Sequence record: PQ826431.1
Length of the DNA stretch: 64,000 nucleotides
From: a phage
Strand: one strand, 5' to 3'
In this document: positions 5,467 through 41,006 of the stretch, piece by piece
Numbering within the stretch: the stretch's first letter is position 1
How the letters are laid out: the number at the start of each line of letters is the position of its first letter
Made by a program: the position numbers and the translations under genes
The notes under the pieces: generated by a model
Database searches by the model: none
Told to the model about the DNA's origin: nothing
The model's input: only the letters and a program-made list of their open reading frames with translations

Positions 5467-6582
5467 GTGGCAAATACATATTTAACTAACGTAGACTTTT
5501 CAGGAAAAGCTACGGAAGAGTCACTAGGTGCTCATATTGCTTACACTTTTGATTTTCAAGGTGGAGCGGCATCTGGTTATAATACCCCCCTTTTATTTAA
5601 GTCAGACGGATCTCCAGACATAACTTTTGAAAAGTTAGAAGCTCTCACTAAAATGGGAGAAGATGTTACAGAGTTACGTAAAAGCTATATTCAACAAGTA
5701 ATGGATCGCATTTCTGAAAAAGTGCGTGAAAAATTTGAAGCTGGTTGGGATTGGGTTTACGTTATTGATGCTGACTTCGATGCGAACGTTGCAATTTTCT
5801 GTTCAGATAACGGTATGTTCTCTGTTGGCTTTAAAGTTGACGGACTGAATGTTGAAGTTGAAGAGGTTGCTAAACCTGTTGTTCGTGTTACTGATTATCA
5901 AGTTGTTGATGGTGATGTAATGATCTCCATTGATTTCTTTGAGGACGTTTTAGACGATGCTTTGAGTAATCTCGTTAAGAGTTCCTTGAAACAAAGTCAA
6001 GTTAAAGATTATTTAGTGAAAGCTCACGCTAAAGCTAATACAAACTCTGTGGATGCAGAGGCTAACCCCGCAGGTGATAAATCTGCAAACACAACTGGAA
6101 TCAATAAAGGAGAAACCCCTTTGGAAAATATCAACAAAGAAGAATTCCTGAAATCTGCTGAATTCCAAGAACTGATGAAAGCACAGATCGCTGAAGCTGT
6201 AGAAAAAGCAGCAGCAGATGCACGTGCAGCCGCAGAACTTGAAGCACAGGAAAAAATCGCTAAGGCAGAACAGGAAGCAGAAGAACTTCGTAAAGCTGAA
6301 CAAGCTCGTATCGAAGAAGAATATACAACTGTTGTTAAATCCTATTCTTTCGTAGAAGAAGACAAAGTTGAAGCTCTCGTTAAATATCTGGTAGACAATA
6401 AAGATATCGCTGAAACTATCGTCAAAGCATTCGAAAAAGCACGTGCAGAAGTGGACGCAGTTAAGAAAGAATTTGGAACAGAACGTGGTGTTGACGTGAT
6501 CAATACTCAACCTGTAGCTAAATCTTCTTCTGAACTGATTAGTCAGAAAGCTGCTGAACTTAAAAAAGCCCAGAAACAATAA
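5467..6582 (+). CDS. putative scaffolding protein
   Basis: GTG start; C-terminal half is highly charged coiled-coil (AELEAQEKIAKAEQEAEELRKAEQARIEEE); position before decoration/capsid genes. Confidence 0.4.
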   Translation: MANTYLTNVDFSGKATEESLGAHIAYTFDFQGGAASGYNTPLLFKSDGSPDITFEKLEALTKMGEDVTELRKSYIQQVMDRISEKVREKFEAGWDWVYVIDADFDANVAIFCSDNGMFSVGFKVDGLNVEVEEVAKPVVRVTDYQVVDGDVMISIDFFEDVLDDALSNLVKSSLKQSQVKDYLVKAHAKANTNSVDAEANPAGDKSANTTGINKGETPLENINKEEFLKSAEFQELMKAQIAEAVEKAAADARAAAELEAQEKIAKAEQEAEELRKAEQARIEEEYTTVVKSYSFVEEDKVEALVKYLVDNKDIAETIVKAFEKARAEVDAVKKEFGTERGVDVINTQPVAKSSSELISQKAAELKKAQKQ

Positions 6583-35858: not shown

Positions 35859-38531
35859 ATGTTTCCAATTCCAATATTTACTATTATGACCAGCACTGGT
35901 GTCGTTCCTCTGCCAGCGGGTATTGTTAAAAAAGTAATCACTTTAGATTACCCATATAATGCTGGTAATTCTAACAGCAGTTTAGCAATTTTGCTTAATG
36001 ATGGTAGATTGTTTACTCAAGGCGCAAACCTTTTTGGTGAGATTGCAGATGGAACTCGTAGTGCACGATTCAATAATTTCCACTTAGCTTCTACTGTAGT
36101 AGCGGATGTGTTTACCGCAGATCGTTGTTTTGTTATTAAAACTAACAGTGGGGGATGGCAATATTCAGGATTGACAGCAGGGTTGGTAGGATCTATAGCA
36201 GCAGGTGGTACGGATGCATGTGTAACTACTTGGACCAGCTTTCCATCTGTAATAACAGGGACTATCTCTTTAGCCAATCTTAAAGAGGTTAAGGGAGGAT
36301 ATAACAACACTCTCTGGTTAATGAATAGTGGTGTTCTTTATGGATCAGGTCAAAACACAGTAGGTAGTTTAGGTGCAAGTACTACTAACGAAGTTTCTAC
36401 TCCTCGTCAGATAACAAGTGCAGCAGTTGCTTTTGATGCAGGTTACAACCAATGCTCTTATGTCAACAATGTGGGAACCTTGCGTGTTTGTGGAGCTAGT
36501 AAAGGTTTAGCAGGTAATAATAACACAACAACAGCTTTTGTCAATGCCAAGATATCCGCTACTGAAACAGTGTATGTCAAAGATTACATCAATACAGTTT
36601 CCCAGACAATAGTTGTAGGAGATACCTCCGGTGGCACGGGTGCAGTAAACTACTTATATGTTAGATCTAATACAGAAACAACCTACACTAAACTGGATAC
36701 CTTTGCAGCAGGTTTCTCAACATGGAAATTTCCACCAAGCCGCCACTCTTTTTTCGTTGGGATCAATAATTCCTTGTGGGCTATTGGTAAGAACTACACT
36801 GCAAACTTAGGTTTGGGGTATGATTCTGCGAGCGGAGATCCACTTCAAGTGGGAAAACCAGTTAAACCTGAAGGAGTGGGTTCCTGGGATATAAACAAGC
36901 TCACAAGCGTTCATACGCTGAATATGGATGTTACTAACCAATTAGGTTATCAAGGAACCTTTTTCGTTTATAATGGAGATATGTATTATTCCGGTATTTG
37001 GAAAGATGGGAAAGCCTCGTATCTGTTCAATAGTGGTCTAAACTATAATAAATTCACACCAATAGCAAGCTCTGTGATTACAGGGGATGTGCTGGCAACT
37101 AGCTTAACTACAGATTCTTTAGGAGTTTGTATTGTAGGTGGAACTAAACAGTTGACACATTCTGTTAGCCCAGAAGGAGGTAAACTTTTCAATATTAAAT
37201 ACACTTCTTCTGCCCCTGCAAACATGACAATATCATCTACTGGTTTAATGACTTTCCATGCAGAAGGTGGTTTTGATGCAGGTATGACAGCCTTAAACGC
37301 TGAAGGAACAACTTTATCAGATACCTCTGGAGGATATGCTTCAACATTGAGTGTTTACACCCCTAGCTTATCTGCGATGGATGTAGGAACAACACAAACA
37401 ATGGTAGCAGAAATAACGCCAACAGGGGCAGCAAGCTTACCTGGCATGGTTGTTGAATATACAACTACAGATCCTAGTGTTGCTACAGTAGATCCTACAA
37501 CTGGTGTAATAACTGGTGTTGGTGATGGTGGTTGTAGGATTGGTTGCACAGCTACGTATCAAGGTGTTGTTACCGCTTCCGATAGTTCTTATTTAACGGT
37601 GAATGCTGTTGCGGGAAAGGAGTTAGCTCCATCTCCGAGTAGTAGTTTAACGGTTCTAAACGGATATTTCAACCACTCGGCAGATGGGGCAATTACGTTC
37701 CCAATTTTATCGGGTACTGTCACACCAGCTAACTTTGTAGTTAAGGTGGATGACGTTGTAATACCTTCAAATAAAGTAATATTTAGAAATAAAGCTTTCT
37801 CTACAGTGGATAGTTATCCAGCAGGAGAATATAGACTGGCTATTGAATTTGCAAGTGCTTCAGTAGTGAATAGTGTTGATGTGTCTATGGAAGCAAATCC
37901 AGATCTTTTAGAATTATGGGGCGGCAACAGAATTGGTTATTCTACAAGCCCAGCCTCACAATTCTTAAAAGGTTGTGCTAACTTAAGACGAATAACTTCT
38001 GATTGTTTTAGTAACACATCTTACACCGGAACATCTATAAGTGGTATCTTCTCTGGCTGCACAAGTTTGACAGCTATCCCTGAAGGATTATTCAGTGATG
38101 CTTTATTTCCTTCAATGACAACAATGTCAAGCACGTTTGAAGGTTGTACATCTTTAACATCTATTCCTTCAGATTTATTTAAGAATCTATCAAAAGTTAC
38201 AAGATATTCTTACACTTTTAAAGATTGCACCTCTCTTGCAGAAGTTCCAGCAGGAATGTTTGATAATATTCCAACGAAAGTGACCTCTTTAACAGCTACA
38301 TTCCAAGGTTGTTTAGCACTTACAGATTTTAATAAAATCTTTAATGACAACCCAGGGTTAACTGTTTGTGGTAAACGTGGAGCATTATCTTCTTTCTTTA
38401 GTGGATGCACAAATCTTACAGGAACAGGAACAACATTAACAAATACATTAGGTGGAGTAGCTAATAGTTACCTATTCAGGTATTGCACAAAACTTTCTGA
38501 TTATAACAATATTCCTTCGGGTTATAAATAA
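35859..38531 (+). CDS. virion-associated protein with Big_2-like Ig domain and BspA-type leucine-rich repeats
   Basis: Big_2-like segment about 37360-37600 (TPTGAASLPGMVVEYTTTDPSVATVDPTTGVITGVGDGG); C-terminal repeats about 37960-38500 (FSGCTSLTAIPEGLF / FEGCTSLTSIPSDLF / FKDCTSLAEVPAGMF / FQGCLALTDF / FSGCTNLTG). Confidence 0.5.
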   Translation: MFPIPIFTIMTSTGVVPLPAGIVKKVITLDYPYNAGNSNSSLAILLNDGRLFTQGANLFGEIADGTRSARFNNFHLASTVVADVFTADRCFVIKTNSGGWQYSGLTAGLVGSIAAGGTDACVTTWTSFPSVITGTISLANLKEVKGGYNNTLWLMNSGVLYGSGQNTVGSLGASTTNEVSTPRQITSAAVAFDAGYNQCSYVNNVGTLRVCGASKGLAGNNNTTTAFVNAKISATETVYVKDYINTVSQTIVVGDTSGGTGAVNYLYVRSNTETTYTKLDTFAAGFSTWKFPPSRHSFFVGINNSLWAIGKNYTANLGLGYDSASGDPLQVGKPVKPEGVGSWDINKLTSVHTLNMDVTNQLGYQGTFFVYNGDMYYSGIWKDGKASYLFNSGLNYNKFTPIASSVITGDVLATSLTTDSLGVCIVGGTKQLTHSVSPEGGKLFNIKYTSSAPANMTISSTGLMTFHAEGGFDAGMTALNAEGTTLSDTSGGYASTLSVYTPSLSAMDVGTTQTMVAEITPTGAASLPGMVVEYTTTDPSVATVDPTTGVITGVGDGGCRIGCTATYQGVVTASDSSYLTVNAVAGKELAPSPSSSLTVLNGYFNHSADGAITFPILSGTVTPANFVVKVDDVVIPSNKVIFRNKAFSTVDSYPAGEYRLAIEFASASVVNSVDVSMEANPDLLELWGGNRIGYSTSPASQFLKGCANLRRITSDCFSNTSYTGTSISGIFSGCTSLTAIPEGLFSDALFPSMTTMSSTFEGCTSLTSIPSDLFKNLSKVTRYSYTFKDCTSLAEVPAGMFDNIPTKVTSLTATFQGCLALTDFNKIFNDNPGLTVCGKRGALSSFFSGCTNLTGTGTTLTNTLGGVANSYLFRYCTKLSDYNNIPSGYK

Positions 38532-38536
38532 GAAAA

Positions 38537-38560
38537 GGAGCCATTTGGCTCCTTTTCTTT
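38537..38560. terminator. bidirectional rho-independent terminator between convergent arms
   Basis: AAAA-GGAGCC-ATTT-GGCTCC-TTTTCTTTT; perfect hairpin flanked by A-tract and T-tract. Confidence 0.65.
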
Positions 38561-39087
38561 TATTCAGCGTTCAACCCTTCCCCATGTTCTTGATGCCAAG
38601 CTTCATGGTGCAGAGGACACAGCCATAGAACATCTAACGGTTTATCATAATCACAATGATGAGCATGAACATCAACAGACCCACACACTTGGCAAGGCTG
38701 TTTTACTAACTTTCCATCTCGGAGTGCGTTACCTACAGCTATATGAGCAGAACGTTTTTTCGGATTCTTTTCGATGTAACGTTTCTTAGCTTCATTAGCC
38801 TTATCTTTACCTTTCCCTTTTGCGTAAGCCTCTTTCAAAGCTTTGCGCTCTGGGGTCTGATCTCTGCTTTTATCATACTCTTTGTAATATTCAGATTTAT
38901 CTTTACGATTCTGTTTAACATCTTTCTTATTACATTCCTTGCATTTATTGACGTGACCGTCAGCCATAGCTTTATGTTTGTAAAATTCAGTGAGGGGCTT
39001 TAACACCCCACACTTGAAACAAACCTTAGAAGCAATGCAGGAAGTTTCGACCATATTGCAGTCCAATAGGGGCAAATGGAATATCAT
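38560..39087 (-). CDS. HNH endonuclease
   Basis: N-terminal Cys4 ribbon (CFKCG...CKEC), C-terminal HNH-type motif VHAHHCDY...LWLCPLHHEAWH; ORF track extends to 39252 but real start is probably an internal Met (39087 or 39054). Confidence 0.6.
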   Translation of the reverse strand: MIFHLPLLDCNMVETSCIASKVCFKCGVLKPLTEFYKHKAMADGHVNKCKECNKKDVKQNRKDKSEYYKEYDKSRDQTPERKALKEAYAKGKGKDKANEAKKRYIEKNPKKRSAHIAVGNALRDGKLVKQPCQVCGSVDVHAHHCDYDKPLDVLWLCPLHHEAWHQEHGEGLNAE

Positions 39088-39958
39088 CGTCGAAGTCCAT
39101 TGGAGGTTCTTCTTGATTACTTGGAGTTGGTTCTGGTTGTGGTTCAGGTTTCTTAACTTCTTTCTTCTCTTCTTTCTTAGGCTGTTCTGCGGAACCACGA
39201 ATGGCAGCAGCAACTTTATCAGACAGAGCCAGAACTTTACGAGCAGAATCAATCAGATCTTCTACAGAGACAGTCTTAATGGTATGGTCTTTACAAGCAT
39301 TGAGAATAGCGTGACCAACAGATGCCCCAAGATCATAATCATTAATATCAACGCCACGAGATTCAGCAATTTCAGATTTCAGCGTGACAGTTGCAGATTG
39401 AACAACCCCAGCGATATCGAAAGCATCGCCTTTAACACCATTACGAATCAGTTCCAGTGCACCATTTACTGCGTGACCAGTTTCCAGACCTACAGTATCA
39501 CGTTTTTTATAGGATTGCTTAGGAGCAGCATCGTTGGAACCTTTATTGCCAGAAGATTTGTTAGACTTCTGAACACCATCGGTAGACAATACTGTAATAC
39601 GAGATTTTTTAGTATTGTAGTAAGTTTTACCGCCTTTATTATCAACGCGATCAATATCAATACTTACTTCTACACCTTTTTCAATAGTGATCCAATTATC
39701 ACCTTCTTTGACTTGCAGGTTTTCATAACCTTCTTTCAGTTCAATGTCACCAAGAGAAATCCAAACACCTTTCTCATCTGGTTTAGCACCTTTCTCTTTC
39801 AGAACAAGAGAGGCTCGGTGAGTTGAAACAATCGTTTTTCCTTCCCAATGAAAAGTTTTAGGTTCAGCGAATTTATCCAGTTTAACGTAGTCTACGATAC
39901 CAGTTGCATAAGTTACGGTTTTGCCTTTACGATCAGTTTCAGTATTAATTACGGACAT
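39026..39958 (-). CDS. ssb: single-stranded DNA-binding protein
   Basis: Pro/Glu-rich linker followed by PPMDFDDDIPF (E. coli SSB acidic tip), then a 15 aa extension. Confidence 0.55.
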   Translation of the reverse strand: MSVINTETDRKGKTVTYATGIVDYVKLDKFAEPKTFHWEGKTIVSTHRASLVLKEKGAKPDEKGVWISLGDIELKEGYENLQVKEGDNWITIEKGVEVSIDIDRVDNKGGKTYYNTKKSRITVLSTDGVQKSNKSSGNKGSNDAAPKQSYKKRDTVGLETGHAVNGALELIRNGVKGDAFDIAGVVQSATVTLKSEIAESRGVDINDYDLGASVGHAILNACKDHTIKTVSVEDLIDSARKVLALSDKVAAAIRGSAEQPKKEEKKEVKKPEPQPEPTPSNQEEPPMDFDDDIPFAPIGLQYGRNFLHCF

Positions 39959-40412: not shown

Positions 40413-41006
40413 TTACCAAGGAATATCATCTTCTTCCAATCTGGTATCTACTTGAGGTGGACGTGGAACCTTAACCTCTTTCACAAAACGAAGATATGGG
40501 AAACGTGTAGCAATTTTAATAACGTGTTTGGCATCTTCTCTAACGTCTTTGTGCAAGAAGCAGATCCCTGTTTCCAAGGTTGTTTCAAAATCTTTAGAAT
40601 AATAACAATCCTTCCCATCAAATGCAGCCTGGCAGATGGACAGATCGAACTCATTTAGAAAGGTTGTCATTACGCTTGGTTCCATAATCATAAGGTTGCA
40701 AAGCTGACCATCACGTTCAAACTCAAAAACGTGTTTAAGACCAGTAACACCTTCATAATTGTCAGAAGCCTCTTTGTTTCCTAGTTTACGAATATTGGTT
40801 CCCATTAAAGCAGATGCAATTAATCCTTGTATTTGTTCTTCCGTCCGATGTGCAGGAAGGGATGTATAGAAATCCAGATCACGTCCAGCAATATCAAGAA
40901 TACGCCAATCACGAACAGCACCGCCAGCCAAGACAGAATTAGGATCAGCAATCTTTAATACGGTAAGAATTTCTTTGGCAATATTGATTTGTTTTGATTT
41001 AGTCAT
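40413..41006 (-). CDS. Pol-beta-like nucleotidyltransferase (CCA-adding/poly(A) polymerase head-like)
   Basis: AGGAVRDWRILDIAGRDLDF matches GGxVRD...DxD signature; C-terminus ends EEDDIPW. Confidence 0.45.
   Translation of the reverse strand: MTKSKQINIAKEILTVLKIADPNSVLAGGAVRDWRILDIAGRDLDFYTSLPAHRTEEQIQGLIASALMGTNIRKLGNKEASDNYEGVTGLKHVFEFERDGQLCNLMIMEPSVMTTFLNEFDLSICQAAFDGKDCYYSKDFETTLETGICFLHKDVREDAKHVIKIATRFPYLRFVKEVKVPRPPQVDTRLEEDDIPW

Follow-up and report, generated by a model that had tools for sequence, protein, structure and literature searches.

In E. coli SSB the last residue is a phenylalanine, and structural work has established that its carboxylate contacts a basic residue in the pockets of partner proteins. 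The C-terminal tip is a hub that recruits more than a dozen bacterial genome-maintenance proteins, and textbooks place the Phe at its very end. Modelling also places the Phe carboxylate of the SSB C-terminus against a basic residue of the partner pocket (PMC5872125). The phage sequence PQ826431.1 raises the question of why such a tip should be followed by further residues. In the stretch of 64,000 nucleotides analysed here (the window), the open reading frame of an SSB-like gene encodes the host-type tip DDDIPF, continues for 15 codons to its stop and overlaps an HNH endonuclease gene by 29 nt (39026..39054, minus strand). Both the internal tip and the overlap had been pointed out in a first-pass annotation, and our analysis bears them out. 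Our comparisons make an explanation in two layers rather probable: the 15 residues belong to a conserved post-tip module, and in large myoviruses this module has been joined to an endonuclease cassette.

The SSB-like gene and the overlapping endonuclease gene

The SSB-like gene (39026..39958, minus strand; ATG at 39958, stop codon TAA at 39028..39026) encodes a protein of 310 aa and belongs to phrog_4477, a family of phage SSB-like proteins whose function is listed as unknown. The family profile matches both domains of the protein (E=3.4e-97) and ends at F295. The architecture consists of an OB-like domain, a four-helix domain and a disordered acidic tail. Specifically, the beta-rich N-terminal part has an OB-like fold (aa 1-125, 39584..39958, minus strand) and is followed by the four-helix domain (aa 156-253, 39200..39493, minus strand), whose helices are modelled at pLDDT 89-96. 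The latter domain is common to relatives of ~400 aa, and these homologs align only to the four-helix half of the window protein. A Lys/Glu/Pro-rich linker (aa 254-284, 39107..39199, minus strand; pLDDT 44-69), disordered in the model, leads to the tip PPMDFDDDIPF with its D-F-D-D-D-I-P-F core (aa 285-295, 39074..39106, minus strand), which is internal here and equals the C-terminus of E. coli SSB chain 1eqq_A. In a PDB sequence search, EPPMDFDDDIPF at aa 284-295 was identical to the last 12 residues (167-178) of that chain. The post-tip extension APIGLQYGRNFLHCF (aa 296-310, 39029..39073, minus strand) fills the space up to the stop codon at 39026-39028, and with these 15 further codons the Phe of the predicted protein would have no free carboxylate. 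AlphaFold2 leaves the extension disordered and undocked on the protein core (pLDDT ~50). SSB PHROGs match the protein in the tail only, and it has no Pfam match at E<=0.01, PF00436 included. A family A DNA polymerase lies near the gene at homologous loci, which provides a context for a putative role in ssDNA binding and replication.

The free-standing HNH endonuclease gene (38560..39054, minus strand) encodes 164 aa. A mechanical list of open reading frames starts it at TTG 39252. The phrog_2340 profile ('endonuclease', E=1.5e-48) aligns to residues 9-163 of the product that begins at ATG 39054, and it is therefore likely that the gene runs from 39054 to 38560. Two modules can be read in the protein: a zinc-knuckle module CFKCG…DG…CKEC at the N-terminus (aa 12-41, 38932..39021, minus strand) and an HNH (His-Me finger) core CQVCG…HAHHCDYDKPLDVLWLCPLHHEAWH with flanking CxxC pairs (aa 121-154, 38593..38694, minus strand). 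There is no Pfam HNH match at E<=0.01 for this product and no second HNH copy within the window. We regard it as a putative homing nuclease. Read in the +1 frame, its zinc-knuckle N-terminus begins within the codons of the extension; the HNH ATG falls within the Gln-Tyr-Gly codons of ssb, and the ssb stop codon TAA lies within the Ser-Lys codons TCT AAG of HNH. The same 'xxT AAG' junction is present in KE23, ECML-10, L008, L010, L289, L291 and L293. Translation of the endonuclease is probably coupled to that of ssb, which is highly expressed, in the manner of the overlapping seg and mob genes of T4. Between the HNH gene and a convergent tail gene that ends at 38531 there is a hairpin, GGAGCC-ATTT-GGCTCC, flanked by A and T runs (38532..38558). 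It folds with dG of -21.8 and -20.6 kcal/mol (z of -6.9 and -6.1) and is kept in all relatives compared. A consensus terminator scan did not call this hairpin; it is likely to act as a bidirectional terminator.

The conserved post-tip peptide

We defined the post-tip module as IPF followed directly by [AS]P[ILV]GL, with a hydrophobic C-terminus 14-17 residues on. The consensus is IPF-AP[IV]GL-x-[YFH]-x3-hydrophobic-x-[HYN]-x-hydrophobic, usually ending 14-15 residues past the Phe, and the window tail fits both the definition and the consensus. Behind the tip, the motif was found in 28 of 120 homolog clusters, in 213 phage records, at no fewer than 120 IMG/VR loci and in 124 plasmid records. 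In the plasmid records the extension sits mostly on non-mobilizable plasmids of phage-plasmid size and otherwise on phages or prophages; SSBs of conjugative plasmids end at IPF. Bacterial genomes sampled at one per species gave 28 matches, 27 of them in Gammaproteobacteria and one in a Parasphingorhabdus MAG. More than 100 SSBs of temperate phages and prophages carry AP[IV]GLx[YF]… after the tip with no endonuclease nearby, and 98 unique loci of temperate phages are free of zinc-knuckle remnants. The carriers represent at least six unrelated protein families: canonical SSBs (PF00436/phrog_44), phrog_743, phrog_112 (T7 gp2.5-like), phrog_2544, phrog_4477 and the primase/helicases of phrog_239. 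As judged from sequence comparison, it is clear that, in phages of Gammaproteobacteria, many unrelated proteins of ssDNA binding and replication carry the post-tip module behind a host-type tip. Searches by motif string and keyword found no description of the motif in the literature, and the PDB sequence search returned tip-terminal SSBs only, with no entry carrying it.

Our results indicate that it is the peptide that is maintained. Between the window and phi92, 6 of the 45 nt of the extension differ, and in the SSB frame all 6 differences are synonymous and 0 non-synonymous; in the HNH frame the same 45 nt yield 5 amino acid changes. The extension of Vibrio phage V039C differs from that of the window at 19 of 45 nt, with 4 amino acid changes. 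In 94 unique IMG/VR tails the third codon positions have ~1-2 bits of entropy and are nearly saturated, which rules out a conserved DNA element in place of a conserved peptide. Residues outside the search pattern are kept as well (among 73 IMG/VR tails, Pro in 63, His in 56 and Ile in 62), and the tail is 14-15 aa long in 117 of 118 IMG/VR tails. Another candidate that we rejected is that 'QY' is kept for the start codon or the ribosome-binding site of HNH: an ATG is missing at this place in L008, the Gln is replaced by Pro or Met in the motifs of temperate phages, and residues read in the HNH frame show no conservation. The length alone is not unusual, since 15 stop-free codons have a chance of ~(61/64)^15 = 0.49; it is the conservation of the peptide elsewhere that lifts the extension above chance. 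The substitution pattern establishes purifying selection on the predicted extension in the SSB frame. On the same comparative grounds, the 15 residues are a copy of the conserved C-terminal post-tip module, kept by selection on the peptide itself.

A partner encoded next to the module was also considered. Clustering of 7,777 ORFs, drawn from 118 IMG/VR loci with extended SSBs and 120 with tip-terminal ones, gave no gene specific to the extended SSBs within 4 kb. An adjacent partner gene was rejected, as families other than SSBs reach 33 of the 118 extended loci at most. The same applies to a general link with HNH in IMG/VR, where one HNH-homolog fragment was found among 118 extended loci and one full copy among the control loci. 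Erf-like, Sak4-like and exonuclease genes neighbour both tail types, and because extended and tip-terminal SSBs share recombinase neighbours, no recombinase family explains the extension.

The endonuclease and the history of the window allele

In Stephanstirmvirinae, Vequintavirinae and their relatives, all large virulent myoviruses, association, junction, polymorphism and scars establish that the module is physically joined to a free-standing endonuclease of putative homing type. A zinc-knuckle endonuclease gene or its scar lies at the extension stop in 8 of 10 extended lineages versus 1 of 6 tip-terminal ones (Fisher one-sided p=0.024, for lineages that are few and only roughly independent), and four tip-terminal control lineages have none. 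The endonuclease overlaps the extension in the window, PsgM04F, L008, L010, KE23, ECML-10, L289, L291 and L293, and scars lie beside the extension in DE16 and L292. The zinc-knuckle module is the part of the endonuclease that always adjoins the extension, and beside extensions it is fused to two different nuclease domains (L008, L010, L011, L256, L289, L291 and L293).

Among genomes that are ~98% identical, HNH is polymorphic at the 3' end of ssb: it is present or absent at a fixed site of otherwise collinear genomes, as is typical of homing endonucleases. The gene is present in the window, Mt1B1_P17, nieznany and ZCKP1, absent in ESCO5-type genomes and reduced to a deletion scar in the DE16 type; in DE16 HNH is internally deleted and the extension is kept beside the scar. 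About 54 of 66 close relatives are identical to the window as far as base 2 of the Phe295 codon, after which they reach a stop (IPF-stop). At least 11 independent GenBank records contain the extended allele of the window, which is therefore not a sequencing error. Extension and endonuclease also occur apart. The identical 15 residues without HNH are found in phi92 and related Justusliebigvirus genomes, and an extension without HNH is also present in L005-7 and on the primase/helicase of KpS8. Extension-only alleles have no recognisable scar in phi92, KpS8 and L023, the spacer of 27 nt in phi92 being too short to judge. The reverse is seen in AV125, which has HNH alone, next to an intact IPF-stop, as have nepoznato and phiWec188; the 3' half of the HNH gene is nearly identical in AV125.

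How could the window allele have arisen? If the extension and the 5' end of the endonuclease move together by recombination, with the highly conserved DNA of the tip serving as homology arm on the upstream side, the exact position of the break in the close relatives, at the Phe codon, would be explained. In PsgM04F the tip, the extension and the HNH 5' end are 92-95% identical and the neighbouring ssb and HNH sequence ~60-85%. Recombination through homology in the tip DNA is probably the origin of the window allele. An endonuclease cassette that brought the extension along is its likely history, because HNH is polymorphic, relatives end at IPF-stop and the extension is associated with the endonuclease. 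On the core-domain tree at least 8 changes of tail state are needed. In Phapecoctavirus, the change of tail state would fit a gain together with the cassette as well as a loss by deletion, since the ESCO5 spacer has no significant similarity to the extension; a decayed extension after the ESCO5 stop, modelled with a 1-nt insertion, scored no better than shuffles (p ~0.4-0.5). The coexistence of tip-terminal and extended alleles in near-identical phages means that the extension is not essential here.

It is possible, if unlikely, that the extended tail is older, that the endonuclease homed into the DNA coding for the post-tip module, and that ESCO5-like tip-terminal alleles are later joint deletions which re-exposed the tip. 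The scar-free alleles of phi92, KpS8 and L023 might be empty target sites rather than cases of cassette loss, and the temperate phages show a module that is old and independent of the endonuclease. The same zinc-knuckle module stands behind extensions on two different host genes, and homing endonucleases favour conserved targets (PMC2988022). However, parsimony on the core tree gives a tip-terminal root with the extended lineages scattered as tips. A deletion exactly after the Phe codon that creates a stop would have to recur, and ESCO5-type spacers have no detectable remnant of the extension. Arrival of the extension with the endonuclease cassette is the history that we prefer for the window allele.

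A quite improbable role of the extension is that of a propeptide or degron: it would be removed, so that DDDIPF-COOH is exposed at a set time, or would target the protein for proteolysis and limit the level of phage SSB. The fixed length and the invariant F-A-P-x-G-L junction could form a recognition site, and the internal tip is still perfectly conserved. Non-polar C-terminal ends (YALYA, SALYA, IYVI, HCF) recall, by eye, degrons at protein C-termini such as ssrA YALAA, which is a resemblance only, but their last residues are bulky in comparison with the small Ala-Ala of the ssrA tag. Furthermore, no protease is implicated, and none co-occurs at the loci clustered.

Very little speaks for a fortuitous, functionless read-through of 15 codons that blocks the tip after an HNH insertion destroyed the ssb stop. 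Such an event would agree with the presence/absence polymorphism of HNH and with HNH-free relatives that end at IPF-stop, and chance alone may well leave 15 codons open. Against it, phi92-type phages without HNH have the identical peptide with only synonymous differences, the motif is carried by more than 100 temperate-phage SSBs and by a primase/helicase, and in the overlap the SSB frame is conserved and the HNH frame is not. The first-pass annotation had proposed that an HNH insertion altered the 3' end of ssb, and had named the same extension in HNH-free relatives as the observation that would speak against this. The link itself holds: in this phage family the extension is tied to the endonuclease by the lineage counts, the polymorphism and the IPF-stop alleles of close relatives. 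What has to be given up, in view of the phi92-type alleles, purifying selection and the temperate-phage SSBs, is the view of the 15 residues as a side effect of the insertion. An assembly frameshift error or a programmed frameshift to an SSB-HNH fusion is hardly credible: in its favour, 66 open codons precede the HNH ATG in the same frame, but the same sequence occurs in at least 11 independent records, no slippery site is seen around the tip on reading the sequence, and extension-only alleles have nothing to fuse to.

Known tails, T4 endonucleases and possible consequences

A conserved module behind the tip can be compared with several known tails. The phage tail has the 12 residues EPPMDFDDDIPF of the E. 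coli SSB C-terminus, likewise behind a disordered linker, and true PF00436 SSBs are frequent among the carriers of the motif; E. coli SSB ends at the Phe, whereas the post-tip carriers add 14-15 conserved residues after it. The tails of T7 gp2.5 and gp4 have an aromatic residue at their very end and bind to the polymerase of the phage. As in T7, one tail motif is found within a phage group on SSB-like proteins (ECML-10, K54lambda) and on primase/helicases (KE23, KpS8), and the gp2.5-like family phrog_112 carries the post-tip tail. In contrast to T7, the aromatic residue is internal here, and many carriers are temperate phages without a polymerase of their own. The SSB tail of HK620 (…NDYPPF) is needed by its cognate recombinase Sak4 (PMC5928155), which is an example of a phage SSB tail serving a phage-encoded partner, and Sak4-like or Erf-like genes adjoin many extended SSBs. 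The HK620 tail, however, ends at the Phe, and the extended tails continue.

The free-standing endonuclease genes of T4 commonly overlap the upstream gene by 11-24 bp, and the SSB gene 32 is the target of SegG, which lies between that gene and gene 59 (PMC2988022). The window HNH is similar to the seg and mob genes in being intergenic, in lacking an obvious translation start of its own, in having an overlap of tens of bases with the gene before it and in lying beside an SSB gene; presence or absence between near-identical genomes and mosaic recombination are shared as well. It differs in that the overlapped codons encode a conserved peptide, which appears to move with the endonuclease and to change the C-terminus of the host protein. 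We infer that the window allele is an actual example of a putative homing cassette acting on a host protein in this way.

What would the peptide do? It may be, although we are in some doubt, that it removes the free Phe carboxylate, bars the protein from the standard host pockets for the SSB C-terminus and, through its new hydrophobic C-terminus, changes the partner that is recruited. The logic of such a partner change resembles that of the shared acidic tails of T7 gp2.5 and gp4. Rather unlikely, but tentatively proposed here, is a wider role of the post-tip peptide as an undescribed short linear motif that re-wires the SSB network: the host tip would be buried, and through the new C-terminal handle phage SSBs, gp2.5-like proteins and primase/helicases would recruit a specific, probably host, partner or evade host nucleases that read the free tip. 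Zinc-knuckle homing endonucleases would then use tip and post-tip DNA as a portable landing pad, grafting the tail onto new replication genes.

In hundreds of SSBs and other replication proteins of phages and prophages, the exact host tip is capped by a conserved peptide of 14-15 residues. Either these proteins deliberately leave the standard tip pockets unused, or they bind or are processed in a way that has so far gone unrecognised. Near-identical coliphages in collections offer the cap (window, nieznany, Mt1B1_P17), no cap (ESCO5, phAPEC8) and the cap without the nuclease (DE16, phi92). The results are relevant to the spread of interaction motifs between phage genes and to the choice of phage SSBs for recombineering tools. 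The tail of the window type reads …DDDIPFAPIGLQYGRNFLHCF and that of the temperate type …APIGLPYPRHAIYVI.

The post-tip peptide and its carriers

The window contains an SSB-like ORF of 310 aa on the minus strand (ATG 39958 to TAA 39028..39026), a member of phrog_4477. Residues 285-295 of its product are PPMDFDDDIPF; with the Glu just before them they match the C-terminal 12 residues of E. coli SSB exactly (chain 1eqq_A, 167-178). After this tip the ssb frame runs on through APIGLQYGRNFLHCF (aa 296-310). Also on the minus strand lies an ORF ending at 38560, for which the mechanical ORF list has TTG 39252 as the start. Since the phage endonuclease profile phrog_2340 (E=1.5e-48) matches the ATG 39054 product from its residue 9 onward, the HNH endonuclease gene is likely 39054..38560 (minus strand, 164 aa). 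Its sequence reads as a zinc-knuckle N-terminus followed by an HNH core. The first-pass annotation of an internal SSB tip running on into an HNH gene is borne out by the 310-aa ORF, the 15 added codons and an overlap of 29 nt in the +1 frame. A strong hairpin (38532-38558; dG -21.8 kcal/mol, z -6.9) separates the HNH gene from the convergent tail gene. Just past it, within the tail gene end on the opposite strand, the minus strand has a 10/12 sigma-70-like promoter match (38500-38528; TTTATA-17-TATAAT with a TG), which may be due to chance because the region is poorer in promoter-like sites than shuffled sequence.

Far from being junk, the post-tip peptide is an old tail module, under selection, that phage ssDNA-binding and replication proteins carry. 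The first-pass annotation took the added residues for a by-product of an HNH insertion, which does not hold: phi92 and related Justusliebigvirus genomes have 15 post-tip residues identical to those of the window, and what lies downstream is a terminator and a gene for a methyltransferase, not an HNH. The phi92 type differs from the window at 6 of 45 nt of the extension; read in the SSB frame all six differences are synonymous, and in the HNH frame five of them alter an amino acid. Vibrio V039C differs at 19 of 45 nt, yet only at 4 of 15 residues. Of the best 120 homolog clusters, 28 have [AS]P[ILV]GL[QP]Y after IPF and then a short hydrophobic end; in some of these, identity to the window protein is as low as 32-50%. 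With the 23-residue tail as query, tblastn gave 232 phage records, and in 213 the match spans 80% of the tail or more. In IMG/VR, scanned with degenerate DNA for DDIPFAP[IV]GL, at least 120 loci match. Among the matches listed, nearly all lie on 40-55 kb temperate-phage contigs, all three stop codons are used and the tail ends 14-15 residues past Phe in 117 of 118; in the 94 unique tails third codon positions have an entropy of about 1-2 bits and residues outside the search pattern are kept.

The tail is carried by at least six unrelated families: PF00436/phrog_44, phrog_743, gp2.5-like phrog_112, phrog_2544, phrog_4477 and the phrog_239 primase/helicase. More specifically, it ends the canonical SSBs of Salmonella epsilon34 (…DDDIPFAPVTLPFPRHAIHAI) and V039C (…APVGLQYGRNLLHVI) and the primase/helicase of Mydovirus KpS8 (…DDDTPFAPIGLQYAKHAIYVI), none with an adjoining endonuclease; the primase/helicase of Seunavirus KE23 has a tail of KpS8 type and an adjoining endonuclease. 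Among tip-bearing plasmid records 124 of 659 have the extension, mostly on non-mobilizable plasmids of 45-65 kb, and SSBs of conjugative plasmids end at IPF. In bacterial genomes, taken one per species, the strict pattern occurs 28 times (27 Gammaproteobacteria and one Parasphingorhabdus MAG). The motif is a phage feature rather than one of housekeeping SSBs. A literature search for the motif strings found no paper containing it, and no PDB chain with it was found. In a Rheinheimera MAG (locus L263) two ORF ends with tip and post-tip peptide, at 5716-5744 (…DDDIPFAPMGLECRRMLHCI) and 6264-6292 (…ECWRMLHCV), lie 548 nt apart, suggesting that the region of the SSB tail was partly duplicated.

Alleles of the locus and the endonuclease

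The window phage, a coliphage of Phapecoctavirus type, shares 98-99% identity with Mt1B1_P17, nieznany and ZCKP1. Alignment of five relatives revealed four locus states: extension with HNH (window, Mt1B1_P17 and the more distant PsgM04F), extension with an internal-deletion scar of HNH (DE16), HNH with a different 5' half and an intact DEDIPF-stop (AV125, nepoznato, phiWec188), and neither, with IPF-TGA (ESCO5). We surveyed 66 records with a 141-nt probe across the junction. The extension is covered in 11, partly in PsgM04F, and about 54 match up to probe base 66 only, the second base of the Phe295 codon; the allele break therefore lies exactly at the tip end. PsgM04F has an overall identity of about 80% to the window, rising to 92-95% over tip, extension and HNH 5' end, and its HNH 3' half matches phiWec188 rather than the window, so the endonuclease is a mosaic. 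In AV125 (L003) and phiWec188 (L287) IPF-TGA is intact, and 5 nt beyond it the HNH gene is inserted with another type of 5' module, (M)ISKLCSCCGAEKPL…, and a 3' half matching the HNH of the local lineage; the gene is thus a recombinant mosaic of two 5' types.

On a neighbour-joining tree of 67 phrog_4477 core domains, with a tip-terminal root, the 10 extended representatives require at least 8 state changes. In nearly every extended phrog_4477 lineage inspected a zinc-knuckle endonuclease starts within the extension codons. This arrangement is found in the window, PsgM04F and the relatives' loci L008, L289 and L293, in truncated form in L291, with a different nuclease domain in L010 and ECML-10, and within the primase/helicase extension in KE23; DE16 and L292 retain internal-deletion scars. 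The endonucleases share an N-terminal zinc knuckle, CxxCGxxKPLxEFYKH…DG…CKxC. Their junction is constant: the host-gene stop TAA lies within an 'xxT AAG' (X-Lys) endonuclease codon pair, 1-3 codons ahead of the first Cys, and conservation is lacking over the opening 8-10 residues of the endonuclease, which are the extension in another frame. No endonuclease was found in tip-terminal lineages P0003, P0009, P0017 and P0058. An endonuclease or scar is present in 8 of 10 extended versus 1 of 6 tip-terminal lineages (Fisher one-sided p=0.024, a small sample of only roughly independent lineages). The link is real, but only in large virulent phages: among the extended IMG/VR matches listed, an HNH homolog was near one of 118 loci, as a fragment, and a zinc-knuckle remnant near 0 of 98 unique loci.

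In Stephanstirmvirinae, Vequintavirinae and relatives the extension and a free-standing zinc-knuckle endonuclease gene are joined. The exact breakpoint, patchy distribution, constant junction and scars suggest that recombination most probably moves both together, for which the near-invariant tip-coding DNA would be the upstream homology arm. The window allele would then be the cassette-bearing one, and the proposed HNH insertion altering the ssb 3' end is partly right within this phage family and wrong on the nature of the added residues. It is usual for free-standing endonuclease genes of T4 to overlap the upstream gene by 11-24 bp, to lack a translation start and to lie next to the SSB gene (PMC2988022); the window HNH resembles them in its gene overlap and its place. 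The reverse order is less likely but a serious alternative: an older extension would be the homing target of the endonuclease, and tip-terminal alleles would have arisen by deletion. Extension-only alleles lacking a recognisable scar, in phi92, KpS8 and L023, are in its favour; the ESCO5 spacer gave no signal either way on this order.

Possible role of the peptide

As read from the sequence, the extension would remove the free Phe carboxylate at the tip, which partner pockets of E. coli SSB use. Changed partner specificity is the mechanism that we tentatively prefer: the extended tail would no longer suit standard tip pockets and would offer a new hydrophobic C-terminus. In T7 the acidic tails of gp2.5 and gp4 are interchangeable, and one tail common to SSB-like proteins and primase/helicases may be a similar case. 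Modelling puts the tip carboxylate on Arg452 of DnaG (PMC5872125), and in HK620 a phage SSB tail can serve the phage recombinase (PMC5928155). A phage-encoded neighbour as the partner is disfavoured, because no gene specific to extended SSBs was found within 4 kb, Erf-like, Sak4-like and exonuclease neighbours occur alongside both tail types, and near-identical phages carry either tail. A propeptide or degron role is a less likely but serious alternative. An AlphaFold2 model predicts the extension to be disordered. The analysis brings out a widespread cap for the SSB tip, undescribed as far as we found, and an endonuclease cassette that carries it.

Neighbouring genes and public records

Two genes upstream of ssb, a nucleotidyltransferase-like ORF (40413-41006, minus strand) ends in …EEDDIPW, a second tip-like acidic C-terminus in the window, with a terminal Trp. 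Its [DE][DE]DIPW is kept in ESCO5, AV125, PsgM04F and phiWec188 and not in phi92. Homologs in L005 and L289 have a precomputed Pfam assignment, PF26128 'Gad2'; a Pfam scan of the window copy gave nothing at E<=0.01. In one distant relative (L291) a SIR2-domain gene (270-1082), two genes upstream of the SSB-like gene, holds this position.

In Escherichia phage dw-ec (L288, OL739525.1) a run of 16 G and then 6 C (about 1650-1750 of the locus, reverse strand) sits exactly at the HNH gene or scar site of other genomes and looks like an assembly artefact in the public record. Some labels of SSB-like homologs (P0073, P0064) are misleading: the SalP219 copy is named 'Tail fiber protein' and another stands under 'Cystoviridae sp.'. 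In K54lambda1.1.1 (L012) the 'exonuclease' CDS is in a different frame from the real ORF. The names Campylobacter phage B15/C3 and Acinetobacter phage ABPW7 mislead as well: these records share about 97% identity with E. coli phages of the genera treated here.
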